A stretch of DNA of 64,000 nt, taken from Dehalococcoidia bacterium. Its GTDB lineage: Bacteria; Chloroflexota; Dehalococcoidia; Bin125. Made by a program: the position numbers and the translations under genes. Positions 2,935 to 53,766 of the stretch are shown one piece after another (position 1 is the first letter of the stretch; each line of letters begins with the position of its first letter). The stretch spans positions 544,001 through 608,000 of the forward strand of contig OY820591.1 of NCBI GenBank assembly GCA_963555985.3. Direction: 5' to 3'. Under the pieces are notes generated by a model. The model made no database searches. It was not told the DNA's origin and saw only the letters and a list, made by a program, of their open reading frames with translations.

Positions 2935-4335
2935 TCAGTCGCCGGCTGCTTCGGCTGCGGCGGCGAGATGGGGCGCGACGGCGTTGGCGGGCGGATTGAC
3001 GACCATGCCGCCGCAGGCGTCGGCGAGTTGGGGCATACAGTCGGAGGCGAACCACTGCATCTGGTGCTCGACCTCTTCGTGCGAGTAGCCGCCGATCTCG
3101 AACCAGGTGGCGAAGAGGAAGTCCTCGTAGCCGACGCCCTCTTTGACCGCCATCATTTGCTCGACCACCTGATCCGGGGTGCCGACGATCGCGACCTGCT
3201 TGTCGATTAGGAGGTCGGCGGTGACGCGCATGTCGAGCGGGTAGGGGTCTTCGTCGGCGTCGGCGAGGACGGCGGCGAACCCGAAGGGGCCGTAGTAATC
3301 CCACTGCAGTTCGAGGCCGAGCTTGAAGCGTTCCATGTCGGCGTCGGGATCGTTGGGATCGAGCAGGTGGATGTAGCGGCAGCAGCCGTAGCCGCGCTTC
3401 TTTTCGGAGTCCCAGCCGAACTTGAAGGGGCCGCGGTCGAGGCGGTCGGGCCAGCCGGCCGCTTCGCAGGATTCGTAGTAGCGCTCGACGTTGCCGACCA
3501 GCCGCGAGGTGGGCTCCGGCACGGTGAAACAGTTCACGCCCCGTTCGGCGGCCCAGTCGATCGAGCGCGGTGAGGTGACCGGCTGCCAGACCTGTGGATG
3601 CGGCTTTTGCGCCGGCTGCGGGATCACGGAGATCTCGCGCAGCGTGGTCGTCGATGCCAGCACCGGACTGCCCATCGAGTACATGTCGGGCGGGCCGAGG
3701 TTGAGCACGTCGTCGACCGGGTGCTTGGTGCGCTCCTGCTCGAAGTAGGCGATGGTCTGCTTGTGGTTCCACTTGGTGTAGGAGGGCGGGACGCGGTAGA
3801 ACTCGCCGTGGTAGGAGAACGACGGCTCCGTCCAGGCCTTCATGATGATCTCGTAGGCCTCTTCGAAGTAGGAGCGGTTGCGCTCCTGGTCCTGGATCGT
3901 CGCGCCCATTGCGCCGCCGAGGACTTCGGCTTCGCGCGGCTGGTAGCCGCGGCCGACGCCGAATTCGAGCCGCCCGCCGGATATGACATCGAGCATCGCC
4001 GCTGATTCGGCCACCCGGATCGGGTGCCACCAGGGGAGGATGTTGGCCATCTGTCCGAGCCGGATACGGGAGGTGAGGGCGGCGATCGCGGTCTCGGTCT
4101 GGAGCGGAGCGGGCGAGAGCTCCGCTCCCTCCGGCTGGAAGTGGTGCTCGGTCATGAACCAGTAGTTGAATCCCAGCTGATCCGCGAGCACGCCCTGGCG
4201 GACTTGGTTGGCGATGATCCGCCGCCCGGACTCATGCACCTCGTCCAGATCGCCGTCGTTGACCACCACGCCTTCGTGGGTCGTGGTCAGCGGCAGGTCT
4301 GCCGCGCCGTTGTGAAAGACCGCCAATTCGAGCAT
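2935..4335 (-). CDS. LLM-class flavin-dependent monooxygenase
   Basis: 'TEHHF', 'AAMLDVISGGRLEFGVGRGY', 'PQPAQKPHP'; start at MLELAVFHNG. Confidence 0.9.
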   Translation of the reverse strand: MLELAVFHNGAADLPLTTTHEGVVVNDGDLDEVHESGRRIIANQVRQGVLADQLGFNYWFMTEHHFQPEGAELSPAPLQTETAIAALTSRIRLGQMANILPWWHPIRVAESAAMLDVISGGRLEFGVGRGYQPREAEVLGGAMGATIQDQERNRSYFEEAYEIIMKAWTEPSFSYHGEFYRVPPSYTKWNHKQTIAYFEQERTKHPVDDVLNLGPPDMYSMGSPVLASTTTLREISVIPQPAQKPHPQVWQPVTSPRSIDWAAERGVNCFTVPEPTSRLVGNVERYYESCEAAGWPDRLDRGPFKFGWDSEKKRGYGCCRYIHLLDPNDPDADMERFKLGLELQWDYYGPFGFAAVLADADEDPYPLDMRVTADLLIDKQVAIVGTPDQVVEQMMAVKEGVGYEDFLFATWFEIGGYSHEEVEHQMQWFASDCMPQLADACGGMVVNPPANAVAPHLAAAAEAAGD

Positions 4336-5879
4336 GATCCGCCCCAGTTCGTTGCACAGTTCCTCTCTGCACGGCGAGGATAGGAAGTTGCACAGGGGAT
4401 TTGTTGTATTGGCGCTGACCGACGCACGGGTTTCAGCCCTCCATGCTCGCGTGTCCACCAGTAGATGCATTTCCGGATCTCTTGTCGGCCGAAGCGGCCC
4501 ATCTGCTGGCTGGCGTTGCCTTTGCCGCGCGGCAGTACCTCGATCCGATCGCAGCGGAAGCCGGCCTGCTCCGCGAAATCGGAGAGGATCAGATCGACCG
4601 GCACTTCTTCGCCGTGGTAGCGCACGTTGTCGTTGACCATCACGACCCCGCCGCCAGGTCGCACGATCCGCCCGAGCTCGGCGATGATCACGGCCATTTC
4701 GAAGAAATAGCCTTCGAGCAGGCGAATCACGTGCCGATTGCCCAACTCGTTGGCCACGTTCCGCAGGATCTCCAAGACTTCGTGGAGTGCGCCCTGCTGG
4801 TCGTACATGTTTGTCGCGGACGCGATCGTCGGCCCGTTGTCGTATTGCGCCCACAATGACTCGCGCTTGGACTGATTTTCGACGGTCGCGGACAGCATCC
4901 GTTGCCGGAGGGCGGAGAATTGCGCCTGGTCATAACCAAGCCATGCGAGTTCGAGCGCGTAGGTGCGGGTGTAGTCGTAGCGGTTGGCGTACGGCGGCGA
5001 GGTCATCACCAGATCGCGCGAGTGCTCGTCCAGCTTCCTCAGCAGTTCGAGACTCGAACCCACGAGCAAGTCCGGGTTTCCCCCGCCGTACTGCTGTTTG
5101 AGTGGGATGATGTCCGCCGCGATTTCACCGAGCCGAACTTCCAGGGCATGGGCGAGCGGCGGGATTGGCCCCTTGTTGAGGCGCGCGCGCAGCGGTCGGC
5201 CGGAGCGATTGTCCCAGCGCAGATACTGGCCGTCTTTGCGCGTGTAGCTGACCTGTTCGAGCACGCTCAGGCAAGCGAGATCGAGCACCGAGCGGAGCTC
5301 AGGAGCCGTGACTGCGCTGATGTATTCGCGAGCGCGCGCCAGCGCTGTTTCCGTTTCCGCCGGAAAGGCGGATTCGGTGATGCGCACGTGCCGGAAGGCA
5401 TATTCCGGTCGAACCTGAGCGTCTGCATCAATATGCGCGAGTAAGCCGCGCGCGGCCTGCTCAAAGGCGTCACGTTCGAGATCGTTGGCGGTGTGCGCAA
5501 TCGCTCTGCCGGCCATGACCCCAACCGGACTGATCTCGATCCCGCTCCCGTCCAGCCCGCGGCCGGCGGCGATGAGCGGAACGGTGCCGAGTCCGGCGAA
5601 TGGATCGAGCACGGAATCGGGTTGCAGCGTGTCCAGACAGCGTTCGACCAGCGCGTGGGAAAAGCTCTCCTTGTACTTGAGCCAGCGAAAACCGGGCGCT
5701 GCTTTGTTGCCCTGGTAGGAGACCAGCTTGCGAGTCAACTCGGGATTGACTTGCAGCCGGGAGGCAAAGCGATCGTGCAGCCTGCGCCGCTCGGAAACCG
5801 GACCGCCATTGGGAGAGTCCGAGGGAGGCGCGCACTGGTCGCGCGGTATCGGGTCGATCAGGGTCTTCGATTCAGCCAT
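4287..5879 (-). CDS. Site-specific DNA methyltransferase, amino-MTase with SPPY motif (likely N4-cytosine)
   Basis: Motif I 'LDPFAGLGT' precedes motif IV 'TSPPY' (alpha arrangement); no endonuclease adjacent. Confidence 0.85.
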   Translation of the reverse strand: MAESKTLIDPIPRDQCAPPSDSPNGGPVSERRRLHDRFASRLQVNPELTRKLVSYQGNKAAPGFRWLKYKESFSHALVERCLDTLQPDSVLDPFAGLGTVPLIAAGRGLDGSGIEISPVGVMAGRAIAHTANDLERDAFEQAARGLLAHIDADAQVRPEYAFRHVRITESAFPAETETALARAREYISAVTAPELRSVLDLACLSVLEQVSYTRKDGQYLRWDNRSGRPLRARLNKGPIPPLAHALEVRLGEIAADIIPLKQQYGGGNPDLLVGSSLELLRKLDEHSRDLVMTSPPYANRYDYTRTYALELAWLGYDQAQFSALRQRMLSATVENQSKRESLWAQYDNGPTIASATNMYDQQGALHEVLEILRNVANELGNRHVIRLLEGYFFEMAVIIAELGRIVRPGGGVVMVNDNVRYHGEEVPVDLILSDFAEQAGFRCDRIEVLPRGKGNASQQMGRFGRQEIRKCIYWWTREHGGLKPVRRSAPIQQIPCATSYPRRAERNCATNWGGSCSNWRSFTTARQTCR

Positions 5880-42520: not shown

Positions 42521-43291
42521 ATGGGCAAACTCGACGGACAGGTGGCGCTGATCTCGGGCGCGGCGCGGGGCCAGGGCGAAGCGCAGGCGCGGCTGTTTGC
42601 GCGCGAGGGCGCGGCGGTGGTGCTCGGCGACGTGTTGGAGGCTGAGGGTCAGCAGGTGGCCGAGAGCATCATCGACACCGGCGGCCAGGCCACGTTCCGC
42701 AAGCTTGACGTGACCGTTGAATCCGACTGGGCCGGAATCGTTGAGCAGGCTGTCGACCAATTCGGAGGTCTCAACATCCAGATCAACAACGCCGGCATCC
42801 TCCGCGCCGGGATGATTGAGACATCCACGCTGGATGAGTACCTCGAAGTGATCGATATCAACCAGGTCGGCGTCTGGCTGGGCATCCGCGCCGCGATCGA
42901 GCCGATGCGCGCGGCTGGCGGCGGCTGCATCATCAACACCTCCTCGACCGCCGGATACGAGGGCTATCCCGGTCTGAGCGGCTACGTCTCCTCGAAGTTC
43001 GCCGTGCGCGGCATCACCAAGGTGGCCGCGCTCGAACTGGCTCAGTACAACATCCGCGTCAACTCGGTCCATCCCGGACCGATCGACACGCCGATGGTGC
43101 GCGATCCGCGCATCGGCGGCCGCAGCGAAGGCGAGATCCCGGTCGACAGTCCAATCGGACGCGCCGGCCGGCCCGATGAGGTGGCCAAGATGATGCTCTT
43201 CATCGCGGCCGACGCCACCTACAGCACCGGCGCGGAATTTCAGATCGACGGCGGCCAGATGTCGGGCCGGGGCATCCCGGTCAGCGACTAG
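42521..43291 (+). CDS. SDR oxidoreductase, copy B
   Basis: 'SGAARGQG', NNAG, YVSSK. Confidence 0.93.
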   Translation: MGKLDGQVALISGAARGQGEAQARLFAREGAAVVLGDVLEAEGQQVAESIIDTGGQATFRKLDVTVESDWAGIVEQAVDQFGGLNIQINNAGILRAGMIETSTLDEYLEVIDINQVGVWLGIRAAIEPMRAAGGGCIINTSSTAGYEGYPGLSGYVSSKFAVRGITKVAALELAQYNIRVNSVHPGPIDTPMVRDPRIGGRSEGEIPVDSPIGRAGRPDEVAKMMLFIAADATYSTGAEFQIDGGQMSGRGIPVSD

Positions 43292-43327
43292 TTTCCAGGA
43301 ATCACGGAATCCGACGGGAGGAACGAT

Positions 43328-44107
43328 ATGGGCAAGCTCGATGGACAGGTCGCGCTGATCTCCGGCGGGGCCAGAGGACAGGGAGAGGCGCAGGGCCGAC
43401 TCTTCGCCCGCGAGGGCGCAGCCGTCGCGCTCGGCGACGTGCTCGAAGAAGAAGGCCAGCGCGTCGCCGAGAGCATCAACGACAGCGGCGGCCAGGCCAT
43501 GTTCCAGAAGCTGGACGTGACCGAGGCCTCCAGTTGGCAGTCGATGATCGACGAGACCGTATCGCAGTTCGGCCGCTTGGACATTGTGATCAACAACGCC
43601 GGCATCGCCCGGATCAAGATGATCGAGGATTCCTCGTTGCAGGACTATCTCGAAGTGATCCTGGTCAACCAGCTCGGCGTCTGGCTGGGCATGAAGGCCG
43701 CGATTCCGGCGCTCAAAGAGGCCGGCGGCGGCTGCATCATCAACACCTCCTCGACCGCCGGGCTTGAGGGCTATAGCGGTCTGGGCGCCTACGTCTCGTC
43801 CAAGTTCGCCGTGCGCGGCATGACCAAAGTGGCGGCGCTGGAGCTCGCGCCCTACAACATCCGCGTCAACTCGGTCCATCCCGGCCCGATCGACACGCCG
43901 ATGGTCCGCGATCCGCAGATCCAACGGACGGACAATGTCGACCTTGACCTCGCTCGCTCTTCGCCGATCCCGCGGGTGGGCCACGTCGACGAAGTAGCCA
44001 AGATGATGCTCTTCATCGCGGCCGATGCGACCTACAGCACCGGTTCCGAGTTCGTGATCGACGGCGGCGTCACGGCCGGCTCGATGGTCGCGAGGCAAGA
44101 GGACTGA
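43328..44107 (+). CDS. SDR oxidoreductase, copy A'
   Basis: 'SGGARGQG', NNAG, YVSSK. Confidence 0.93.
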   Translation: MGKLDGQVALISGGARGQGEAQGRLFAREGAAVALGDVLEEEGQRVAESINDSGGQAMFQKLDVTEASSWQSMIDETVSQFGRLDIVINNAGIARIKMIEDSSLQDYLEVILVNQLGVWLGMKAAIPALKEAGGGCIINTSSTAGLEGYSGLGAYVSSKFAVRGMTKVAALELAPYNIRVNSVHPGPIDTPMVRDPQIQRTDNVDLDLARSSPIPRVGHVDEVAKMMLFIAADATYSTGSEFVIDGGVTAGSMVARQED

Positions 44108-44127
44108 AACGGCTGAGGAACAACGGC

Positions 44128-44154
44128 GAGATTCCCGCTTTCGCGGGAATGACG
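44128..44154. repeat. CGTC-type REP hairpin
   Basis: GAGATTCCCGCTTTCGCGGGAATGACG. Confidence 0.8.
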
Positions 44155-44173
44155 AGGTGATTGGAGCAACGAC

Positions 44174-44944
44174 ATGGGCAAGCTTGATGGACAGGTCGCG
44201 CTGATTTCCGGCGGCGCGCGCGGTCAAGGCGAACGGCAGGCGCGACTCTTCGCCCGCGAGGGGGCGGCGATCGCGATCGGCGATCTGCGGGAGGAAGACG
44301 GCAACCGCGTCGCCGAGAGCATCAACGACACCGGCGACCAGGCGATCTTCCGCAAGCTCGACGTCTCCGACCAGTCGAGTTGGGCGGAGATGGTCGAGGC
44401 CACGACCGAACAGTTCGGCAGGCTGAACATCCTGCTGAACAACGCCGCCATTCTGCGCAACGGATCGATCGAGGACACGTCGGTGCAGGAGTACCTGGAA
44501 ATGATCAAGATCAACCAGGTCGGGGTCTGGCTGGGCATCCGCGCGGCGATCAAGCCGATGCGCGAGGCCGGCGGCGGCTGCATCATCAACACCTCCTCGA
44601 CGGCCGGTCTGGAAGGCTACCCCGACTCCAGCGCCTACGTCGCCTCGAAGTTCGCCGTGCGCGGCCTGACCAAGGTCGCCGCGCTGGAGCTGGGGCCCTA
44701 CAACATTCGCGTCAACTCGGTGCATCCCGGCCCGATCGATACGCTGATGACCACGAATGAGGACACGCCTCGCCGGGCGGACGGGGAGGTGCCGGTTCGG
44801 ATGCCGATCCCGCGTTTCGGCCACGTCGACGAAGTGGCCAAGATGATGCTCTTCATCGCCGCCGACGCGACCTACAGCACCGGTTCCGAGTTTGTGCTCG
44901 ACGGCGGCCTGACCGCCGGCCGCTCCCTCGAGGTCGGCGAGTAG
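44174..44944 (+). CDS. SDR oxidoreductase, copy B'
   Basis: 'SGGARGQG', NNAA, YVASK. Confidence 0.93.
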   Translation: MGKLDGQVALISGGARGQGERQARLFAREGAAIAIGDLREEDGNRVAESINDTGDQAIFRKLDVSDQSSWAEMVEATTEQFGRLNILLNNAAILRNGSIEDTSVQEYLEMIKINQVGVWLGIRAAIKPMREAGGGCIINTSSTAGLEGYPDSSAYVASKFAVRGLTKVAALELGPYNIRVNSVHPGPIDTLMTTNEDTPRRADGEVPVRMPIPRFGHVDEVAKMMLFIAADATYSTGSEFVLDGGLTAGRSLEVGE

Positions 44945-44973: not shown

Positions 44974-45426
44974 TCAGTCGAGATAGCGCCGCAGCAGGGG
45001 CGTGAAGCCGGCTCTGGCGAACTCTTGGTCGGCGGTGAGGATGGTGGCGATGTTGTACTCGCGCATGATCACGATGGCGGCGCAGTCCTGGAGCGAGAAC
45101 GTGGAATCGGCGAACTCGCCGGTGTAGAGGTTGAGCGCCGCTTCGGAGAGTCGGCGGTCGTGCGGGAGGACTGTGTAGCGCGGGTCGGCGCGCAGCGACG
45201 CGATCCGTTGTCCGGCGTCGATCCGAACGGCGCGAGCCCTGCGAGTGAAATGGGCGAGCGTTTCCAGGATCACGCCCTCGCTGGTGACCAGCGGCTGCTG
45301 CGGCAAGATCTCGTTCGCTGCTGCGAGCGCGGCCGCGCGCCAGTTGTCGCGCAACGAATACAGGGCGATCAAGTGGACACTATCGACGAAGAGCGGTTCT
45401 CGATCGGGCAACGGGCGATCCGGCAT
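44974..45426 (-). CDS. PIN-domain (VapC-like) toxin, copy 2
   Basis: Acidic tetrad in 'FVDS', 'ILET', 'SLQDC', 'LTADQEF'; TGATG overlap with upstream gene. Confidence 0.85.
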   Translation of the reverse strand: MPDRPLPDREPLFVDSVHLIALYSLRDNWRAAALAAANEILPQQPLVTSEGVILETLAHFTRRARAVRIDAGQRIASLRADPRYTVLPHDRRLSEAALNLYTGEFADSTFSLQDCAAIVIMREYNIATILTADQEFARAGFTPLLRRYLD

Positions 45427-45644
45427 CAAGACTGACGCGGCACGCGAAACTGGTCCAGGTAAGCGGCCAACTCTTTCTGCGTCTCCTCCGACAGGTCCAG
45501 CGGCTCGTCGCCCCAGGTTTCGCTCAGTACCTGCTGCGTGGTGCGATGGTCGTCCTCCGGGATCGGCTTGATTGGGATGTACCAGCTCGGACGCTCGCGC
45601 GGTTCGTTGGCGTCGGTTCCGTTGGGGGTTGACTCGTCGGACAT
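45426..45644 (-). CDS. Putative antitoxin, copy 2
   Basis: Small acidic ORF coupled to the PIN gene; TAAAAT -10 and AGGAG SD upstream. Confidence 0.7.
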   Translation of the reverse strand: MSDESTPNGTDANEPRERPSWYIPIKPIPEDDHRTTQQVLSETWGDEPLDLSEETQKELAAYLDQFRVPRQS

Positions 45645-45706
45645 CTCGGACTCCTGGGTCGATTTTAGCGCCTTGCCCCAGTCTCTGCTCGGGGGCGGAG
45701 CGGTTG

Positions 45707-46159
45707 TCAATCGAGGTAGCGGCGGAGGAGGGGGGTGAAGCCGGCTCTGGCGAACTCTTGGTCGGCGGTGAGGATGCTGGTGATCCCGTACTCGCGCATG
45801 ATCACGATGGCGGCGCAGTCCTGGAGCGAGAACGTGGAATCGGCGAACTCGCCGGCGTAGAGGTCGAGGGCTGCTTCCATCAGGGCCGGTTGGTGGGGGA
45901 TGACACGGTATCCAGGATCCGCGCGTATTCCGCGAATTCGGCTGACCAGACGCTGCCGAAACGACCGAGGCGCGCGTGAGAAGTGGGCCAGCATCTCCAG
46001 CAGAACCCCGTCGCTGGTGTAGATCATCTGTTCATTATCGAGCTGCCTGGACGCGGCGATCGCTGCGCCCCGCCAATCGTCCTCTGCCGAAAACAGGGCA
46101 ATCAGATAGACGCTATCGACGAAGAGCGGCTCTCGACTTGGCAACGGGCGACCCAGCAT
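45707..46159 (-). CDS. PIN-domain (VapC-like) toxin, copy 1
   Basis: Paralogue of 44974-45426 with near-identical C-terminal third. Confidence 0.85.
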   Translation of the reverse strand: MLGRPLPSREPLFVDSVYLIALFSAEDDWRGAAIAASRQLDNEQMIYTSDGVLLEMLAHFSRAPRSFRQRLVSRIRGIRADPGYRVIPHQPALMEAALDLYAGEFADSTFSLQDCAAIVIMREYGITSILTADQEFARAGFTPLLRRYLD

Positions 46160-46389
46160 CAAGAATCGCGCGGGACCAGAAACTGGTCGAGGAATACCTT
46201 GGTCTCCGCTGCCACTTCCGGAGACAATTCCGGCGGCTCATCACCGAACAGATCTCCGAACGTGCCCTCCAGGACTTCCGCGGCTGTGCGGTGGTCATCC
46301 TCGGGACGCGGCTCGAACTCGATGTACCAGCTCGGACGCTCGCGCGGTTCGTTGGCGTCGGTTCCGTTGGGGGTTGGGTCTTGCGGCAT
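46159..46389 (-). CDS. Putative antitoxin, copy 1
   Basis: Paralogue of 45426-45644; TAGAAT -10 and AGGAG SD. Confidence 0.7.
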   Translation of the reverse strand: MPQDPTPNGTDANEPRERPSWYIEFEPRPEDDHRTAAEVLEGTFGDLFGDEPPELSPEVAAETKVFLDQFLVPRDS

Positions 46390-46512
46390 GGCGGTCTCCT
46401 GCGTCGATTCTAGCGCCGCTGCCCGGCCCTGGATTGGGGCGGGCTGTTCGGACTTGGGCGTGTTTGGCTGGGGATTTGTTGGTGGGGGTGGGAGATGGTT
46501 CGGGCGGGGGCG

Positions 46513-46881
46513 CTAGGGCTTGGCCTGAATGAGCACTTGCCCGCCTTCCTCAATGTCAATGTTCAAGTTGTGGTTGTGCAGCAGGGACATGCCCAGCAGG
46601 GGCGTCGTATCTGAGACGTAGGCAACGATCTCTCTTGGCTGGCCGTCCCAGAGCACCGTGACGCCGTAGACGTCGACTGTCGCTTCGCTGCCGTCTGCCA
46701 GGATGACTCGGTTGACGCCCCGGTAGCTCAATCCCAACTCTGCGACGATGGCCGGTCGCAGGGTGAGGAAGCGGGTGAACCCGGTGTCGACCACGGCGTC
46801 CACGTTGCGGGCTTGTCCGGCCGGACCTCGGAGGGGAAGGGCGACCACCGCCTCGTAGGCTGCGTTCACCGTTCCCTGCAT
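46513..46881 (-). CDS. Clan AA aspartic protease (AF_0612-like)
   Basis: 'DAVVDTGF', 'LADGS', 'PLLGMSLL'. Confidence 0.85.
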   Translation of the reverse strand: MQGTVNAAYEAVVALPLRGPAGQARNVDAVVDTGFTRFLTLRPAIVAELGLSYRGVNRVILADGSEATVDVYGVTVLWDGQPREIVAYVSDTTPLLGMSLLHNHNLNIDIEEGGQVLIQAKP

Positions 46882-47180
46882 CACTCGGCCCTGGGCAGCG
46901 CGCCGCCGCCGATGCTGGCGACCGCGCGGTAGCCCACGCGAAGCAGCCAGATGTCGATGGCATCGGGCCGGGCCTTGCGCAGACGGTCCGATGCAGCCAG
47001 TTCGCTTTCGGCGACGGCCCAGTGGCGGCTGTCCACGTCGATGGCGACGTACTGGCCGTCGTGCCTGGCCTCCACCAACGCTTTGATCTCCCGACGGTAG
47101 ATCTGATCGCCGAGGCGGGCGGTTTCTTGGTTGGGTCGGCGTTCGCGTTGTTCGCGGGTTGGGCCGTTGGGGGTGGACAC
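46881..47180 (-). CDS. DUF5678-like small protein
   Basis: 'GDQIY..EI...VE..HDGQYVAIDVDS', 'LLRVG'; GTG start at end of the linker repeat; TGATG overlap with the protease. Confidence 0.7.
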   Translation of the reverse strand: MSTPNGPTREQRERRPNQETARLGDQIYRREIKALVEARHDGQYVAIDVDSRHWAVAESELAASDRLRKARPDAIDIWLLRVGYRAVASIGGGALPRAE

Positions 47181-47263
47181 GATGCGGCCTCGCTTCCTGA
47201 GGCCAGTGTAGGCAATCCCCGGTTCCGGCTTCACGCCGGAACCCGCGCGGCGGCGGGCGGCGG
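47178..47263 (-). repeat. Conserved linker (hairpin, TACACT -10, SD-like, GTG), copy 2
   Basis: Near-identical to 48193-48279. Confidence 0.9.
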
Positions 47264-47445
47264 CTACTTGGGCACGGCGGTGATCTTGAGCTTCAGGGAG
47301 CGGCCCTGCGCGATCGGATTCCAGCTGTTCCCGGAGTAGTTCACCGAGTTCGCGATGCTCCAGCCGTTGCCGGACGGCTTGCCGATGGCGGCCTTGCTGG
47401 AGGCTGCCCTGATTGGACACGCTGGCGGTGAGGTTGCGCGGGTAG
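47264..47445 (-). pseudogene. Orphan 3' fragment of a surface-protein gene, variant 2
   Basis: Reads PSGNGWSIANSVNYSGNSWNPIAQGRSLKLKITAVPK*, homologous to the end of 49441-53766; no start; an out-of-frame 'LTASVSNQ' piece upstream suggests an internal deletion. Confidence 0.85.
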
Positions 47446-47446
47446 C

Positions 47447-47896
47447 TCAACGTCGGCCGGCGAGCGTGGCGACTGCGACCATGGCGCGTTCTTGCGGCGG
47501 CGCCGCGTTGAAGTCGATGATCGCCCCTTCGGCCCGGTCGATCCACGCCAGGACCTGAGTGAGCGCAAAGTTCGCGTCAGGGTTGTAGTCGGCGTTCTCA
47601 CGCGCCTTCTTGATACTTCCAATGATGAAGGCGAAATGTTGCACCTGTGGGCTGAACAGATGAGGCCACCCGTGCAGCGGGTTCTCGGCGCGGTAATGGC
47701 GCAGCGAGCGGTAGGTCGCCGTCCAGTCGGATTGATTGGCCAGCGTTCGGGGCCCCACGATCAGGTTGGCGTTGCTGGCCGCCAGCGCGTGGAACATGGC
47801 GTAGTAGGCCGTGCTGACCGCGCGCCGCAAGGCTTCCTGGGAAGGTTGACCGTTGGCGAGCTGACGGCTCGCGCGGATCAGTTCTACCCAATCCAC
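47447..47896 (-). CDS. HEPN-domain protein
   Basis: 'RRAVSTAYYAMFH' and 'RENADY' motifs. Confidence 0.8.
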   Translation of the reverse strand: MDWVELIRASRQLANGQPSQEALRRAVSTAYYAMFHALAASNANLIVGPRTLANQSDWTATYRSLRHYRAENPLHGWPHLFSPQVQHFAFIIGSIKKARENADYNPDANFALTQVLAWIDRAEGAIIDFNAAPPQERAMVAVATLAGRR

Positions 47897-48195
47897 GGCG
47901 CGCCCAACTGGTCGGCGTCGCTCTCGGAGACGTAGGAGATGGACGGGAGCGCGTGGATGCCGGCCTCACGCAACGCCCGGTGCAAGTAGGCGTCATAGGA
48001 GTTCAGCCGGGGGATGTCGAGGATGCTCGGATCGCCCTCGTAGATCACCCAGACATCGACGAACGGGACGCCGTCGAAGTCTTCGTCGGGCTTGGTCCAG
48101 ACCTGGCGCCAGGGCAACTTGCCCTGGTGGTGGTCGTCCAAGGTGCCGAGGATGATCTCCCTGGCCTGTTCCGCCTGCTCTGCGGTGATCATCAC
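47884..48195 (-). CDS. Small protein upstream of HEPN, possibly degenerate MNT-like partner
   Basis: Overlaps the HEPN start; acidic 'DEDFDG..FVDVWV' strand; GTG start at end of the linker repeat. Confidence 0.55.
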   Translation of the reverse strand: MMITAEQAEQAREIILGTLDDHHQGKLPWRQVWTKPDEDFDGVPFVDVWVIYEGDPSILDIPRLNSYDAYLHRALREAGIHALPSISYVSESDADQLGAPWIG

Positions 48196-48279
48196 GATGC
48201 GGCCTCGCTTCCCGAGGCCAGTGTAGGCAATCCCCAGTTCCGGCTTCACGCCGGAACCCGCGCGGCGACGGGCGGGCGC
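48193..48279 (-). repeat. Conserved linker, copy 1
   Basis: Near-identical to 47178-47263. Confidence 0.9.
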
Positions 48280-48447
48280 CTACTTTTGCGTGGCGGTGAC
48301 CTTGAGCTTCATGGCGGCGTTGCTGGGATCCAGCGCCTATGAGCCTTGCTGGTAGCGCGTGCCGTTGGCGAGGCTCCAGCCGTTGCCGCTCGGCGTCAGA
48401 GTCTCGTTGTTACTCGCTGCGCCCGGCAGGTAGACGGCGTTGCCGCT
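48280..48447 (-). pseudogene. Orphan 3' fragment of a surface-protein gene, variant 1
   Basis: Reads ETLTPSGNGWSLANGTRYQQGS*ALDPSNAAMKLKVTATQK*; in-frame TAG (48337-48339) where the other copies have Trp. Confidence 0.85.
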
Positions 48448-48697
48448 ACTGCAACACGCCTGCCGGCGAGATGGTTGTGAGCGTGTTGCCCTCGGGTATC
48501 GTGATCGTAGACAGGGGACTTGGCTCCGGCGCCCGCTGCCCGTTCGCCTCCATGCTGGCAATCCAGTCGCGCATGGCGTCTTCCGCATTGCGCACGACCT
48601 CATCCAGGGTGTCGCCCATGGCGACGCAGCCCGGCAAATCCGGGAAGACCGCCCCGTACGCGCCCGTCTCGCCGTCGATCAGCACTGGATACTTCAC
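48446..48697 (-). CDS. hicB: HicB-family antitoxin (short, possibly 3'-truncated)
   Basis: 'YGAVFPDLPGCVAMGDTLDE...NAEDA'; own GGAGG SD and GTG. Confidence 0.8.
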   Translation of the reverse strand: MKYPVLIDGETGAYGAVFPDLPGCVAMGDTLDEVVRNAEDAMRDWIASMEANGQRAPEPSPLSTITIPEGNTLTTISPAGVLQ

Positions 48698-48698
48698 G

Positions 48699-48871
48699 CT
48701 AGTCCTCCCATCCGGCGGCGGCGGCGATACTGCGGGCGACTGCGGGCGACACAGTGCGATGCTATCGCGCAGATTCGGGTGTCGGTAGATGTCGTGATTG
48801 CCGCCCCGACGCTCCAGATACCAGCCTTCCCGCAGCAACCGACGTCGGATCCTGCGGGTTTGCAGTTCCAT
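48699..48871 (-). pseudogene. hicA: Frameshifted HicA-family toxin
   Basis: 'LLREGWYLERRGGNHDIYRHP' start; native-looking end 'VARSIAAAAGWED*' in another frame; 10-bp tandem duplication at 48731-48750. Confidence 0.75.
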
Positions 48872-48897
48872 GATGTCAATCTACCGCCTCGGGCCAG

Positions 48898-48941
48898 TGT
48901 CTGAATCGGGATTGTTGGGATTGTGGGATTTTCAGGATGGG
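48898..48941. repeat. 44-bp GGGATT-unit direct repeat, copy 1
   Basis: TGTCTGAATCGGGATTGTTGGGATTGTGGGATTTTCAGGATGGG; 3 mismatches to 49391-49434. Confidence 0.85.
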
Positions 48942-48948
48942 CGGGCGG

Positions 48949-49332
48949 CTAGCTGAAGAGTTGCGCGAGCTGGGCGGCGACGATGAAGGCGATGGCGGCG
49001 CGGGTCAACCAGCGCTCGGTGTTGCTGCGCTGGTTGGCTTCGTCGAACTTGGCCAGCATCAGCTTCTCCAGATCGGCGAAGCGTTGATCCATCTGCCGCT
49101 GGATGTCGCTGAAGCGGATTTCCATTTCGCGCTGCAACTGATCGCGCAGGTCGGCGAGGCCGTCTTTGAGTTCCTGCTTGGTCGCCGTCTGCGAGAGCAC
49201 GCGGGTCAGGCCGAGCTCGAAGGCGAGGCGGTAGGCCTTTGCCTGCGGCTCTTCCATGCCCGCTTCGGCCAGATCCTCTTCGAGGCGCTCGGACCAGATG
49301 TCCAGCGTTGGGTCGGCCTGCTGCGTGGTCAT
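48949..49332 (-). CDS. DUF1640/CCDC90-like coiled-coil protein
   Basis: 'LAEAGMEEPQAKA' head, 'ATKQEL' neck, coiled coil, hydrophobic C-terminus. Confidence 0.75.
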   Translation of the reverse strand: MTTQQADPTLDIWSERLEEDLAEAGMEEPQAKAYRLAFELGLTRVLSQTATKQELKDGLADLRDQLQREMEIRFSDIQRQMDQRFADLEKLMLAKFDEANQRSNTERWLTRAAIAFIVAAQLAQLFS

Positions 49333-49390
49333 GCTCGGCTTCCTTGAGGCTCAGGATAGGCGCTCCCTCCCGCCCCGGATGGGGATGGGA

Positions 49391-49434
49391 TGTCTGAATC
49401 GGGATTGTCGGGATTGCGGGATTTTCGGGATGGG
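49391..49434. repeat. 44-bp GGGATT-unit direct repeat, copy 2
   Basis: See 48898-48941. Confidence 0.85.
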
Positions 49435-49440
49435 GGCCGG

Positions 49441-52400
49441 CTACTTGGGCACGGCGGTGACGCGGATTTTCAGGGAGCGGCCCTGCGTATTCTCACCCCA
49501 ATTTAGTGAGGAGGCGCGCATCGCGTCCGCGATGCTCCAGCCGTTGGCGGACGGCTGCAACGTCTGCCCGTTGTCCAAGGTGGTGTTCACCTTGGCTTGC
49601 GTAGTGTTGCCGGTCCCCCCGAGGTGGACGAAGTACTGCTTGCCCGCCTCGAGCGCGCAACCGGCGCCTGAGCAGGTGAAGGTGGAATCGCCGACCGCGG
49701 GGGTCCCGGACAGGGTCGCGAGCGCCGTCGTGGTGTCGGGTTTGCCGTTGGACAGCCGGCTGCGGAGGTAGACGGTGATGCTGCCGGCGCTGTGCATCTC
49801 GGCGAAGTTCAGCGTCACACTGGAGAGGGTGTAGCCGCCGCTGTTGCTCCCGGTCGTGAACTCCTGCGCCCACTGGGCGGTGCCTGCGACGATATGAGTC
49901 AGGGTTGTGGTCTGGCTCAGGTTGGAGACGGTGACGGCGGCGGTGAACGTCTCGCTGGCGACCTCGTTCGCGCTGTTGCAGCCGGTCGCGCTGTACGCCT
50001 TGTAGGTGTAGGTCGTGCCGGCGGTCAGCCCGGTCAAGTCCTCTGTGGCGTCGTTGGCCGCGACCGGGCCCTGGCAGGTGTTGTCCGGCCCGGTGTTCGC
50101 GTCGTACCACCACTGCGCGGTGTGTCCGGCGATGGTGAGCGTGGCGGTGATCGTCGTGATCCCGCTCGCGGTGAGCGATGCGGTCGTGGTGAACGCTGGG
50201 GCGGCGGCGAGTTCGTTCGCGCTGGTGCAGGTCGAATCGCTGTAGGCCTTGTAGGTGTAGGTCGTGACGACGGTGAGGCCGCTGAGCGCCTGGCTGGTCG
50301 TGTGGACCGGGCCCTGGCAGGAGGTGTCGGGGGCGGTGTCGGCCTGGTAGTACCAGGCGCCGGCGTGATTGGCGATGGTCAGCGTCGCGGTGGTGCCGGC
50401 GACGTCGCTCGCGGAGAGGGTGGGCGCCGGTGGATCCGGCATATCGGTCGACCAGAGCATGTCGGAGGGTTCGGACCAGGCGCCGTAGCCGATGAAGTTG
50501 TCGTGGGCGCGGACGCGGACCTGGTAGGGCACGCCGCCGCGAATGTCGCCGCTCCAGCTGGCGCGGTTGGTGGTCTCGCCGATCAGCGTGGGCGAGGAGG
50601 TGACCACGGCCTGACCGCCGCGCTTGCCGTCCATGCCGATGATCGGGGCTTCCCACGACGTCCAGGCGGGCTGCCAGGGCTCGCCGATGGCGGTGCGCCA
50701 GATGCACTGCCACTTGCCGTCGACCGCCTGGGGCGGGGTGACCTGGCAGGGGCGCCACTGGATCTGGTACCAGTTGGGGGCGCCGCTGGGCGTGGTCCAG
50801 GAGACTTCGATGTCGTTGTTTTTGGGGGCGCCGGTGGGCTTGGTCGGCGCGCCGACGCAGAGGGGCAGGGTGACGTCGTTGCCGGAGGCGTCGTGCTGGG
50901 GGTTGATGTCGGAGAGGTACTTGGACCAGCCCGCGGGTATACAGCCGCTGAGCCGGTTCTCGCCCAGTGCGAAGTTGGCGGAGGTCAAGGAGGTCAGGCC
51001 GCCGAGCTGGTTCGGGATCTGCCCGCTGAAGCGGTTGTTATTCAGCCAGAGGCGTGTCAAGTTGGTCAGCTTGGCCAGGCTCGCCGGCAGGGGACCGGAG
51101 AGTTGGCTGTTGTCCAGGGCTAGCTCGGTCAACTCGGTGAGGTTGCCGATGTTGGCCGGGAGCTGTCCGGTCAGTTCGCGGTTGTACAACCGGAGCGTCG
51201 TGAGACCGGTGAGGTTGGCGAGTCCGCGCGGCATCGGGCCGGGGCGACTGGCCAAGACGCCGGATTCGACAACGAGCTTTGTCAACGCATCCAGATCGGC
51301 GACGGTGTTGGGCACGTTCCCGGTGCTGGAATACCAATAGAACGTTACGTTCAGTTCCGTCACCCGGCTGTTTTCGACTTTCACACCCGTCCACGAACTC
51401 ATCGCCGTATCGGTCTTCCAGTTGTCGAGCACGGAATCGCTGACCTTGATGATGTCCTTGGCGGCGAGCAGGGTGTCGCAGTCTTCCACGATGGGGCCTG
51501 AGGTCACGGTGCTGCCGCCCACGGCGGTGGTGCCGGCGCAGACGTCGTCGTCGCCTTCGGTGGCGTCCAGCACGGTGGAGACGTTGTTGAAGTTGGCGTC
51601 CGTACTGGTCGCGGTGTGGGTGACCGTGGTCGCGCCGTAGGCGTAGTCGCCGTCGCCCTTGCCCGCGCCGGGCACCGTGTCGGTGTCCTGCGCGGCTGTG
51701 AGCGTGACGGTCTGCGGGACCGACCAGTTGGAGGGGGTGAAGGTCAGCGTGGTCGGGTTGGCGGTGATGTCGCTGTCGCCCGTCGTGGTGATGGTCACGG
51801 TGACGTTGGCGGTGGGCTGATGGCTGAGCCAAACGGTATGGGTCTCCGAGCTGCCTTCGGGAATGATGTGCCAGGGCGTGGAGAGCGCGACCGACGAGGT
51901 GGTGAACTCCGCGTCGGTGGCGTCGGAGGTCACTTCGGTGTTGCAGGCGGCGTTCGAATAGGCCTTGAACGTGTACGAGGTCCCGGGCTCGAGCCGCGTG
52001 AGGCTCGCTGTGTTTCCCGGCCAGTACACGAGGGTGCAATCACCGGAACTGGGCGCGGTCTGTTTGTAGTACCAGTTGCTGGAGTGGCCCGTGATGGTGA
52101 GCGTGGCTCCGTAGTAGGCGACGTTGGATGCGGTCAGCGTGCCTGATCCCGCGGCGGTGACCAGTTGGCCCGAGGCGATCGCCGCGCCGCTGCAGCCGCC
52201 GCCGTAGACGGTGATCGTGTAGGTGGTGTCGGCGTCGAGGCCGCCCACGGTCGTCTGCTGGCCGTTGACCGGGCCGACGCAGCCGGACTGTCCGGAGGCG
52301 CCGCTGGCTCCGGCTGCGCCGGCCGCTCCGGGCGGCTCGTCGGCGCGGTAGTACCAGGTTCCGTCGTAGTTGCCCAGGGTGAGGTCGGCGCCGTCGGCGG

Positions 52401-53766
52401 TCTCGTTCTCGACGGTCAGCGTGGGCGCGGCTTCGGGCGTCGCGGCGACGTACCAGGGCGCGGCGGCGGGCGCGGGGCGGCTATTGCCGACGCTGTTGAC
52501 GGCGCGAATCTTGAAGCGGTATTCGATGCCGTTGTCCAGGCCTTCGACGCGGAAGGAGGTGGTGGTCGCGCCGCTGGTCGGCATCGCCGTCCAGTCGCTC
52601 CAGGCGACGCCGGTGTAGCGGATGCGGTACTCGTAGCGGCTGATCGAGGAGTCGGCCGGGTCGTCCCAGGTGAGGATCACGCGCTGGTCGCCGGGTCTCG
52701 CGCTCAGCCCGGTCGGTCGCGCGGGCGCGGTGGGCTCGTCGTTGTCGATCTCGGTGGCGGTCCAGTCGACCTTGCCGCCGTACCAGTCGCGGGCGTCGTG
52801 GGTGACGTCGCGGGCGCCGTTGGCGTAGTCGTCGTCCTCGGCGGCGATCAGGGTGACGGTCTGGGCGGTGTTCCAGTTGGCGGGGGTGAAGGTGAGCTTG
52901 AGCGCCGCGGCGTCGCTGGGTTCGCCCTTGAAGCTGATGTCGGGGTCGTTGTTGTCGCGTACGGAGAGTCCGATGCAGACTTCGACGTCTTCGTCGGGCT
53001 GGACGGTGAGCTTGACCTGGTAGCTGGTCTCGCCGCCTTCGGGGACGGAGAGGGCGGTGATCGGGTTGCCGTTGCCGTCCTGGACGATGATGCCGCGCGG
53101 AGCGGGCGGCGTGTAGGGTCCGCTCGCGGGGGAGTTGCGCCAGTTGGCGCCGCCGCCCGCGTTCTTGGCGCGGACGCCGACGATGTAAGTCTTGGCGTTG
53201 TCGGCGCTGATGGTGATGCTGGTCGCGGTGAGGTCGAAGGCGGCCAACTGCCAGCTCTGGGCGTTGTCGTCGGTGTAGGTGACGTGGTACGAGGTCGCGC
53301 CCGCCGGAGCGTCCCAGGAGGCGGTGAGGGTTCCGTCGGCGCGGGTCAGGCTGACGGCCGCGACCGCGCTCGGCGGCGGAGGCGGGGTGTAGGGTCCGGC
53401 GGCGGCGGAGTTGCGCCAACCGCTGCCGCCGTGCTCGTTCTTGGCGCGGACGCCGACCACGTAGGTCTTGGCGTTGTCGACGTCGATCCTGATGTTGGTT
53501 TCGGCGTGGTCGAGGGCGGCCAGTTGCCAGCTCTGTTTGCCGTTGTCGGAGTAGGTGACGTGGTAGGAGGTCGCGCCCGGCACGGCGTCCCAGGAGGCGG
53601 TTAATTTTCCGTCGGCGCGGGCGATGCTGACCGAGTTGGGCGTCGCGGGGGGCGAGGTGAGATCACCGCCGCTCTCGGCCAGGGCGCCGGCGATCGCGGC
53701 CAGCGCCGCCAGCAGCGCGATTGCCGCCAAGGTCCAGGTTCGAGAAGCTGAACGCAGGAATGTCAT
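49441..53766 (-). CDS. Large secreted multidomain surface protein (Fn3 repeats, Cys-paired ~80-aa repeats, LRR block, C-terminal choice-of-anchor-R-like domain)
   Basis: Signal peptide; duplicated 'LTASWDA..GATSYHVTY'; 'LTFTP.NW...QTVTL' x2; LRR 'LSGPLPASLAKLTNLTRLWLNNNRFSGQIP'; 'VSNL...AQEFTTGSNSGGYTLSSVTL'. Confidence 0.88.
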   Translation of the reverse strand: MTFLRSASRTWTLAAIALLAALAAIAGALAESGGDLTSPPATPNSVSIARADGKLTASWDAVPGATSYHVTYSDNGKQSWQLAALDHAETNIRIDVDNAKTYVVGVRAKNEHGGSGWRNSAAAGPYTPPPPPSAVAAVSLTRADGTLTASWDAPAGATSYHVTYTDDNAQSWQLAAFDLTATSITISADNAKTYIVGVRAKNAGGGANWRNSPASGPYTPPAPRGIIVQDGNGNPITALSVPEGGETSYQVKLTVQPDEDVEVCIGLSVRDNNDPDISFKGEPSDAAALKLTFTPANWNTAQTVTLIAAEDDDYANGARDVTHDARDWYGGKVDWTATEIDNDEPTAPARPTGLSARPGDQRVILTWDDPADSSISRYEYRIRYTGVAWSDWTAMPTSGATTTSFRVEGLDNGIEYRFKIRAVNSVGNSRPAPAAAPWYVAATPEAAPTLTVENETADGADLTLGNYDGTWYYRADEPPGAAGAAGASGASGQSGCVGPVNGQQTTVGGLDADTTYTITVYGGGCSGAAIASGQLVTAAGSGTLTASNVAYYGATLTITGHSSNWYYKQTAPSSGDCTLVYWPGNTASLTRLEPGTSYTFKAYSNAACNTEVTSDATDAEFTTSSVALSTPWHIIPEGSSETHTVWLSHQPTANVTVTITTTGDSDITANPTTLTFTPSNWSVPQTVTLTAAQDTDTVPGAGKGDGDYAYGATTVTHTATSTDANFNNVSTVLDATEGDDDVCAGTTAVGGSTVTSGPIVEDCDTLLAAKDIIKVSDSVLDNWKTDTAMSSWTGVKVENSRVTELNVTFYWYSSTGNVPNTVADLDALTKLVVESGVLASRPGPMPRGLANLTGLTTLRLYNRELTGQLPANIGNLTELTELALDNSQLSGPLPASLAKLTNLTRLWLNNNRFSGQIPNQLGGLTSLTSANFALGENRLSGCIPAGWSKYLSDINPQHDASGNDVTLPLCVGAPTKPTGAPKNNDIEVSWTTPSGAPNWYQIQWRPCQVTPPQAVDGKWQCIWRTAIGEPWQPAWTSWEAPIIGMDGKRGGQAVVTSSPTLIGETTNRASWSGDIRGGVPYQVRVRAHDNFIGYGAWSEPSDMLWSTDMPDPPAPTLSASDVAGTTATLTIANHAGAWYYQADTAPDTSCQGPVHTTSQALSGLTVVTTYTYKAYSDSTCTSANELAAAPAFTTTASLTASGITTITATLTIAGHTAQWWYDANTGPDNTCQGPVAANDATEDLTGLTAGTTYTYKAYSATGCNSANEVASETFTAAVTVSNLSQTTTLTHIVAGTAQWAQEFTTGSNSGGYTLSSVTLNFAEMHSAGSITVYLRSRLSNGKPDTTTALATLSGTPAVGDSTFTCSGAGCALEAGKQYFVHLGGTGNTTQAKVNTTLDNGQTLQPSANGWSIADAMRASSLNWGENTQGRSLKIRVTAVPK

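Follow-up and report, generated by a model that had tools for sequence, protein, structure and literature searches.

The window examined here, a stretch of 64,000 nucleotides (nt) from contig OY820591.1 of an uncultured Dehalococcoidia bacterium (genome of 3.33 Mb, labelled G000 in the coordinates below), carries on its minus strand the gene for a 1441-aa adhesin, behind which lie, on the same strand, two start-less remnants of the end of the adhesin's terminal domain, each comprising the last four or five strands. Small genes, several of them in pairs of toxin-antitoxin (TA) type, stand between the attached gene end, here called tip1, and the two orphan ends, tip2 and tip3. Our subject is how this array of gene ends may have come about. 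The features on which the argument turns are as follows, with positions counted along the window.

49441..53766, minus strand: adhesin gene, 1441 aa, an open reading frame (ORF) with a signal-like N-terminus, fn3 repeats, a leucine-rich repeat (LRR) region and a C-terminal choice-of-anchor R domain
49444..49923, minus strand: terminal choice-of-anchor R domain (NCBIfam NF041539), the last 160 aa, an 11-strand lectin-like beta sandwich
49441..49640, minus strand: tip1, the attached and probably imported gene end, about the last 66 codons, with the strands from domain residue ~96 to the stop; delimited by a drop in identity to the protein P0002
49385..49440, minus strand: ~50-nt post-stop block, copy 1, made of AATCCC repeats (...GATTCAGACA), directly behind the adhesin stop
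48898..48951, minus strand: ~50-nt block, copy 2, whose first triplet is the stop codon of a coiled-coil gene
48280..48447, minus strand: tip2, orphan domain end of ~55 codons with one TAG inside, in frame; profile A1, E 9.4e-16
48193..48275, minus strand: 83-nt block, copy 1, behind tip2, with two G+C-rich hairpins, a ribosome-binding-site-like GGAAGCGAGG and a GTG at its end
47264..~47445, minus strand: tip3, the putative displaced former gene end, intact from its PSGNGWS core to the stop (47380-47264); profile A1, E 8.6e-16
47178..47260, minus strand: 83-nt block, copy 2, behind tip3

Read along the minus strand, the adhesin stop at 49441 is followed by a ~50-nt block, the coiled-coil gene, the second ~50-nt block, a hicA-like gene, hicB and tip2; thereafter come an 83-nt block, genes of 102 and 149 aa, tip3, the other 83-nt block, a 99-aa gene, a protease gene and two PIN pairs. 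In the adhesin, Pfam finds only fn3-type (83 bits) and LRR families, and neither the YD-repeat core of Rhs proteins nor the filamentous-haemagglutinin repeats of CdiA. The translation closes with ...PSANGWSIADAMRASSLNWGENTQGRSLKIRVTAVPK before the stop, within a terminal domain that scores 75.2 bits with NF041539, for which the cut-off is 30, and spans practically the whole of that profile (positions 2-154 out of 155). AlphaFold2, from a 29-sequence alignment, models this domain as an 11-strand beta sandwich with a pLDDT of 94.5, for which Foldseek returns as closest solved folds a baseplate protein of phage phi812 (9eui_Q, E 7e-8, TMq 0.67), the lectin-like domain of Cwp84 (4ci7) and a capsid protein of PBCV-1. 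Judged by these closest solved folds of the model, the end of the adhesin gene is predicted to belong to a lectin-like binding domain. Only one paralogous adhesin in the genome, at G000:C1:1507255, ends in a domain of the same type.

In the structure model, the orphan ends start at domain residue ~96-104 of 160. Specifically, tip2, whose left end coincides with the hicB stop codon, reads ...TLTPSGNGWSLANGTRYQQGS, an in-frame TAG (48339-48337, minus strand), then ALDPSNAAMKLKVTATQK and a final stop, and tip3, whose left end coincides with the stop codon of the 149-aa HEPN gene, reads PSGNGWSIANSVNYSGNSWNPIAQGRSLKLKITAVPK and a stop over 47264-47380 of the minus strand. They lie in open frames of 132 aa (that with the TAG) and 60 aa, respectively. 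Upstream of the PSGNGWS core of tip3, the in-frame translation has no likeness to the domain, and another frame there reads NLTASVSNQGSLQQ, which resembles NTT..DNGQTLQ of the adhesin gene, a sign that an indel upstream of the core probably disrupted the frame. Profile A1, which has 50 positions and was built from 14 choice-of-anchor R domain ends, matches both orphans (E values are per genome) far beyond chance, and by this sequence likeness we take tip2 and tip3 to be true remnants of the domain end. The coordinates that an initial annotation had given for the 1441-aa gene, tip2 and tip3 all proved correct.

The blocks between these gene ends are repeats. The two ~50-nt copies are 93% identical over 44 nt in one nucleotide comparison and 90.7% over 54 nt in another, and the two 83-nt copies agree at 80/83 positions (96%). 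The result is a mosaic, in that tip2 and tip3 are 68% identical (a 21-nt stretch common to both reaches 95%) and the 83-nt blocks adjoining them 96%. Between tip1 and tip3, a common 29-nt core (96.6%) and a 47-nt 3' flank (87%) enclose a centre that cannot be aligned, and the initial annotation had been right to describe the tips as having conserved flanks and a variable centre; the same arrangement is common to the whole domain family, internal copies included. The junction repeats have no further copy in the 3.33-Mb genome. A motif related to the ~50-nt block, AATCC.GATTCAGAC, occurs otherwise only behind the stop of the paralogous adhesin (G000:C1:1507159-1507242), and a D20-type motif search of the genome likewise placed the motif at the two adhesin loci only. 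G+C content is flat along the array (0.647-0.662) and does not differ from that of the genome, which fits donors from related bacteria. No Rfam family matched at E<=1 between 44900 and 54100, and scans for promoters and terminators gave background level only.

What points to an exchange of gene ends is the adhesin of another assembly. A search with tip3 through 5.8 billion proteins, confined to longer proteins, found a single one among 10 candidates, P0002 (1451 aa, E 5.9e-12), which aligns end to end with the window adhesin at 1113 identical residues of 1414 (79%) and is, by that alignment, its full-length orthologue. Its attached end (...PSANGWSIANSVNYSGNSWDPTTQGRSLKLKVTAVPK) agrees over the last 37 residues with the orphan tip3 (PSGNGWSIANSVNYSGNSWNPIAQGRSLKLKITAVPK) at 32/37 and with the attached tip1 (PSANGWSIADAMRASSLNWGENTQGRSLKIRVTAVPK) at only 24/37. 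Further, P0002 and the window adhesin are 91% identical over the 33 alignment columns preceding 'CALEA' and 61% over the final 66, and the boundaries of this drop, of tip2 and of tip3 fall within ~10 codons of each other: tip2 begins near 'AVYLPG', which aligns with YFVHLG, and tip3 a few codons later. Because the orthologue carries an attached end of the tip3 type, the simplest reading of these sequences is that tip3 was the lineage's former end and that tip1 replaced it later. For tip3, then, with identity falling from 91% to 61% at the orphan boundary, the proposal of the initial annotation that the adhesin end had been replaced and the old end displaced downstream is supported. With its stop replaced by X, tip2 finds its best carrier in the end of P0003, at 56% identity and from another adhesin lineage; tip2 is therefore another subtype, and the tips are no in-situ duplicates of one sequence. 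Tips at 68% beside 83-nt blocks at 96% form the kind of mosaic expected from recombination between alleles.

The array itself is real. Several of its junctions are bridged by Logan contigs that match it without a mismatch and stem from three runs of a single study (possibly that of the source sample): hicB, tip2 and the 83-nt block lie on 48238-48574, 48873-49521 extends from the second ~50-nt block through the coiled-coil gene and the first block into tip1, and 46374-47251 and 47340-47729 are covered likewise. With such contigs lying across the junctions, the array is no misassembly.

On balance we lean towards reading the locus as a C-terminal displacement array at the adhesin, produced by imported DNA and host homologous recombination, and we infer the order of events, the route and the part played by the TA pairs. 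The exchanged unit would be the last ~55-66 codons of the choice-of-anchor R domain, comprising the final four or five beta strands as well as a variable hairpin loop, together with whatever follows downstream. In the predicted older arrangement, the body of the adhesin would have been followed by tip3, the 83-nt block and the protease pair. DNA from related bacteria, bearing another gene end and its own downstream genes, would then have recombined in at least twice, with tip2 and the HEPN pair arriving first and tip1, the coiled-coil gene and hicAB later. Each time, the new end would have been fused in frame to the resident body, and the old end shunted behind the new cargo, where it lacked a promoter and a start. 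No element-encoded enzyme need be supposed; the likeliest route would be RecA recombination through the conserved stretch encoding PSxNGWSIA, with incoming DNA that was circular or anchored on one side, as proposed for Rhs genes. The addiction-type pairs may be hitch-hikers that favour retention of the insert and penalise deletion between the direct repeats. For the cell, the effect would be an adhesin end changed in its ligand binding or antigenicity, and the orphans would mainly be decaying leftovers; signs of decay are the stop codon in tip2, the lost frame upstream of the tip3 core and the broken-looking hicA.

In keeping with a route of this kind, no integrase, transposase or reverse transcriptase was found among the 33 other window ORFs and 11 local ORFs scanned, and genome-wide there are just two tyrosine recombinases (C1:962692 and C1:1448131), each a long way from the locus, besides a single weak serine-recombinase match. 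Several known mechanisms were considered and set aside. An integron or attC array is contradicted by the lack of a tyrosine recombinase in the window, of an Rfam match and, by eye, of R''/R' repeat ends of the GTTRRRY type. A diversity-generating retroelement does not agree with the lack of a reverse transcriptase in the 44 ORFs or with tip centres that differ at all bases and by indels, not at adenines only. For a module of Xer/dif type, neither an integrase nor dif-like sites were seen, the latter in a check by eye only. The nucleotide core also fails as an att site. A scan of the genome collection with its 21-nt pattern returned 31 stretches, and of the 12 inspected, five lay in large adhesin frames of Dehalococcoidia or Tepidiformaceae, one in a non-adhesin frame of a Thermomicrobiales metagenome-assembled genome (MAG) and six in unrelated proteins. 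The core was also present within internal domain copies of other Dehalococcoidia adhesins. Its occurrence in internal copies and unrelated proteins marks it as a codon-biased protein motif, which is no proof of recombination or of an att site.

Orphan ends of this domain were also sought beyond the window. Among 65 genomes of the family (which here equals the order), 10 match profile A1 at E<=0.01, with orphans in G000 (two) and in G012, a genome of another genus (one, plus a shorter fragment); in a sample of 401 genomes of the class, three match at E<=1e-5, with one further orphan, in G404. Five chosen genomes gave 51 listed places, of which only that in G404 lay in a frame under 100 aa. The genome set searched contained no genome of the window organism's genus. 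At the metagenome level, a scan with a 23-nt pattern of the 83-nt hairpin gave 0 matches, and a scan with the tip profile gave 41 stretches fitting the pattern, of which a single weak locus (L082) survived the check. In G012, a BrnT/BrnA pair (80 and 58 bits) stands between 132-nt direct repeats, 92% identical, that include the 3' part of an orphan end of the same domain type. In G404, the orphan begins 15 nt behind the stop of a 1108-aa adhesin whose relatives P0003 and P0005 keep a full last domain.

Several smaller observations from these genomes can be recorded here. The orphans of G012 (L043:6325-6478) and G404 (L075, G404:C1:2064500-2074500, at 4299-4452) form one 154-nt unit, 92% identical across two families, with sharp ends and in differing contexts, next to adhesin genes that are 78% identical; the substitutions between them are, by eye, mostly non-synonymous. 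At 5390-5455 of L043 (G012:C1:404000-416000), an 86% copy of the last 66 nt of an 873-aa adhesin gene follows directly behind its stop, with no cargo between, so that this locus has stranded gene ends of two kinds. In L051 (G404, ~5400-5862) and L046 (~5000-5850), a large adhesin has its last choice-of-anchor R domain broken by a stop or frameshift, with the rest of that domain in a separate frame; these interruptions, in MAGs of Dehalococcoidia or Tepidiformaceae, reflect either pseudogenisation or assembly error.

A number of results weigh against displacement by imported ends. The terminal drop in identity to P0002 is no outlier, since the last 66 columns rank only 15th lowest of 127 windows. 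No close full-length carrier of tip2 was found. The near-identical stretches through which recombination would have proceeded are short: tip1 and tip3 have 29 nt of this kind in common, tip2 and tip3 21 nt. In the Logan contigs of the three runs, no strain-level variation or alternative junction was seen. Some contig joints do link tip3 or tip2 to the adhesin body (47366->49561, 47366->49666, 47378->50105 and 48405->49820). The shorter arm of each measures only 28-43 nt, the likeness threshold was 85%, the joints have no shared letters, and their depths are several times those of the organism's own mismatch-free contigs; given the short arms and the depth, we reject them as alternative tip-body junctions and ascribe them probably to adhesins of other organisms. 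The orphan of G404 and G012 looks, from its sequence, like an internal deletion of a last domain, and orphans could thus arise without displacement. Finally, the genes behind five other Dehalococcoidia adhesin loci are mixed (epimerase/BioY/McrBC, an Asp protease, PaREP1, NYN, and nothing recognised), so that linkage to TA genes is frequent but no rule.

Other histories can be built from the same features. One that is unlikely, if still to be taken seriously, has the cargo inserted in situ with a long duplication of its target; the duplicated target would be the ~50-nt block for the coiled-coil gene and the tip together with its 83-nt block for the HEPN pair, and allelic recombination would have changed the attached tip afterwards. 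The cargo does lie between direct repeats, ~50 to ~250 nt in length and without further copies in the genome, with 96% identity between the 83-nt blocks and 91-93% between the ~50-nt blocks, and the window ORFs scanned include no mobility gene. The BrnTA pair of G012 between its 92% identical 132-nt repeats would fit as well, and PMC2853133 documents target duplication for restriction-modification (RM) units, with repeats of 46-423 bp. A single duplication, however, cannot yield a 68% tip beside an adjoining 83 nt at 96%, so that a second event is needed, and tip2 and tip3 are of different subtypes. Direct repeats of a gene's 3' end are also typical of islands in gene ends, and a fixed crossover site could explain why tip2 and tip3 have similar left boundaries; the array might then be what remains of site-specific elements that entered the adhesin 3' end, each with a surrogate end, and whose integrases were since lost. 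We find this scarcely credible: the window ORFs scanned contain no integrase or resolvase, the genome has only the recombinases listed above, the units are small (~1 kb), the left boundaries show no core sequence in common, and the conserved nucleotide core is found in internal domain copies of other genomes too.

The many paralogous adhesins in these genomes, and the G404/G012 orphan that is best read as an internal deletion of the last domain, would suit a collapse by deletion, named as the alternative in the initial annotation, in which three tandem adhesins, each with its own gene pair, lost the second and third bodies. That course of events seems very unlikely to us, and less parsimonious than displacement. 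It needs two independent deletions, each running from the preceding gene's stop codon and ending within ~10 codons of the same point in the domain; moreover, the body on tip1 is a full-length orthologue of the P0002 body, which carries the tip3 type, and identity to P0002 falls at the orphan boundary. Orphans might instead be kept on purpose. The pilE/pilS system of Neisseria maintains promoterless partial copies, with conserved flanks and variable centres, near an expressed surface gene, and works in a RecA-dependent manner; a silent archive of this sort, serving as donor for gene conversion, could switch the variable loop of the adhesin. The conserved 29-nt 5' and 47-nt 3' stretches around the variable centres of tip1 and tip3 agree with it, as do the open frame of tip3 from core to stop and the G012/G404 orphans, 92% identical over 154 nt against 78% for the neighbouring adhesin genes. 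We nevertheless regard it as improbable, for there are only two orphans here, one of which, tip2, has a stop codon and is only 68% identical, and no evidence of ongoing conversion was found, in that the Logan contigs held no variant junctions. Conserved flanks and a variable centre are, besides, typical of the domain family as a whole, and the substitutions between the G012 and G404 orphans appear mostly non-synonymous.

A more ambitious proposal extends displacement into a self-propagating, integrase-free cassette system of tips and cargo, and its parts, taken jointly, are distinctly unlikely to hold. Recombination between neighbouring tips would free circles of one tip and one addiction module; these would pass between Dehalococcoidia living together and enter, by way of RecA, the conserved tip core of any matching adhesin gene; each gain would alter the binding end, with the TA module enforcing retention and the orphans forming an archive for later switching. 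The nearly common left boundary of the divergent part of tip1, of tip2 and of tip3, together with the 154-nt orphan unit, would then be traces of inherited cassette boundaries.

The cargo that we suppose to have travelled with the ends, and the genes beyond it, comprise the following.

48949..49332, minus strand: 127-aa coiled-coil protein with a hydrophobic tail (ORF), between the two ~50-nt blocks
48698..48871, minus strand: hicA-like toxin gene (PF07927, partial), probably defective
48446..48697, minus strand: hicB antitoxin gene (PF15919, 58.2 bits)
47884..48192, minus strand: 102-aa partner gene (ORF), overlapping the next gene by 13 nt
47447..47896, minus strand: 149-aa distant HEPN-family protein with an invariant R..DY, assigned by family profile against PDB
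46881..47179, minus strand: 99-aa partner gene of the protease (ORF)
46513..46884, minus strand: clan AA aspartic protease, 123 aa (TIGR03698)
44974..46389, minus strand: two tandem pairs of a small partner and a PIN-domain gene, VapBC-like (PF01850, 34.7 and 35.8 bits, over cut-off)

Not all of these genes appear functional or recognisable. The 127-aa coiled-coil protein has no family above threshold and has one paralogue in the genome (G000:C1:702708-702989, 57% aa identity). The hicA-like gene covers only profile positions 2-33 of the 58 of PF07927 (26.6 bits against a cut-off of 27). Just behind the matching part lies a perfect 10-nt tandem duplication (two adjacent copies, 48750-48731, minus strand), after which the frame runs on into that of hicB, and from this duplication and run-on we judge the toxin gene probably dead. 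For the 102-aa protein, Pfam, NCBIfam, PADLOC and PDB sequences gave nothing and the ESM Atlas only unnamed clusters. Its 149-aa neighbour belongs to a family of 1175 representative clusters at E<=1e-3, whose 40-sequence profile matches the HEPN/UPF0332 chains 2hsb_A (8.3e-7) and 9xbd_A (5.5e-6) in the PDB; PF05168 is matched by 3/40 members. The protease scores 59.4 bits with TIGR03698 (cut-off 57.35) and 22.7 bits, below cut-off, with PF13650, and its 99-aa partner has no family match in Pfam, NCBIfam or PADLOC; a protein search with this partner, passed through a word prefilter, scored nothing. The cargo labels of the initial annotation survive in part: HicB, the distant HEPN protein and the protease are borne out by PF15919, the PDB chains and TIGR03698, "MNT-like" and "DUF5678-like" find no family match and are dropped, and hicA looks broken.

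Some of this cargo is met again elsewhere. The pair of small gene and protease recurs, independent of adhesins, in four genomes of genus g9, which give 7-10 matches each to a 3.3-kb query, mostly in the protease-pair region and often beside partial tandem copies. In two of them (L078-L081, from G008 and G023), the pair is multi-copy, and L079 holds a partial tandem copy of the small gene (4474-4823 against 4880-5229, 86%). Within the window, the PIN pairs consist of repeats (D2-D4) that are 76-91% identical, and a homologous pair of small gene and PIN gene (G000:C1:1506428-1507221) stands directly behind the paralogous adhesin with the same type of end domain, preceded there by a long palindrome built of the AATCC.GATTCAGAC motif. 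Beside the array, at 42521-44944 on the plus strand, the window carries three tandem short-chain dehydrogenase paralogues with near-identical N-termini, and it also contains five luciferase-like monooxygenase genes.

An array of displaced 3' ends in tandem, each trailed by a small gene and all lying behind a very large surface-protein gene, recalls contact-dependent growth inhibition (CDI), whose systems, as Poole and colleagues are said to have reported in 2011, carry orphan cdiA-CT/cdiI modules. The tip described here differs in consisting of strands of a choice-of-anchor R sandwich, with no toxin activity and no tip-specific immunity partner, and the cargo pairs occur elsewhere independent of adhesins.

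A closer precedent is found in the rhs genes. Jackson et al. 2009 (PMC2935791) describe rhs genes followed by start-less fragments that combine a short conserved part with a differing tip, some with stops or frameshifts; they take as evidence an ancestral tip attached in one strain and displaced in another, and propose that tip-bearing circles are excised and integrated by host RecA recombination, with no integrase. Such a model of circle excision and integration would explain why an old tip is shunted downstream and not replaced. The window adhesin likewise precedes same-strand, start-less 3' fragments, a stop and a frameshift included, and tip3 is displaced in the window and attached in its orthologue P0002, a correspondence seen for tip3 and not for tip2. 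The present locus departs from the rhs case in several respects. Its main gene encodes an fn3/LRR adhesin and has no YD repeats; what is exchanged is a portion of a lectin-like beta sandwich and no toxin domain; its cargo consists of stand-alone TA-type pairs with no cognate immunity gene; the conserved part on the orphans is only 10-25 codons long and not near-identical to the gene; and G+C content is the same as that of the genome.

Furuta, Abe and Kobayashi 2010 (PMC2853133) describe RM systems, a kind of addiction module, that lie inserted between long direct repeats and have no mobility genes, and the present locus shares features with these too. The unit here is under 20 kb, has direct repeats longer than 30 bp (~50 nt; 83 nt, or ~250 nt with the tip; 132 nt in G012) and no integrase or transposase that could be found. 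Its repeats are unique in the genome, and in the RM case, according to the same work, they may overlap the 3' end of the upstream gene. The repeats by the HEPN pair, however, are mosaic (68%/96%), with one copy apparently from another allele, and the cargo consists of TA-type pairs and not of RM genes. Overall, the locus fits the Rhs model best, with features shared with target duplication as described by Furuta and colleagues. The initial annotation had singled out the array as a candidate for an undescribed system, a claim that has to be given up, because the work on rhs displacement (PMC2935791) and on insertions between repeats (PMC2853133) already describes such arrangements; the locus is no undescribed system and reveals no new machinery.

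What the array would add is a new setting. If our preferred reading of displacement is right, gene-end displacement, known chiefly from polymorphic toxin genes, also reshapes an ordinary lectin-like adhesin of uncultured Dehalococcoidia. New here would be its scale, a few beta strands inside a single domain, and the fact that addiction modules stand in place of immunity genes. For annotation, the locus serves as a warning that a short frame without a start, met behind an adhesin gene, may once have been a gene end. For the bacteria, it suggests a testable route by which the binding end of a surface protein may be varied and by which TA modules may build up behind surface-protein genes.

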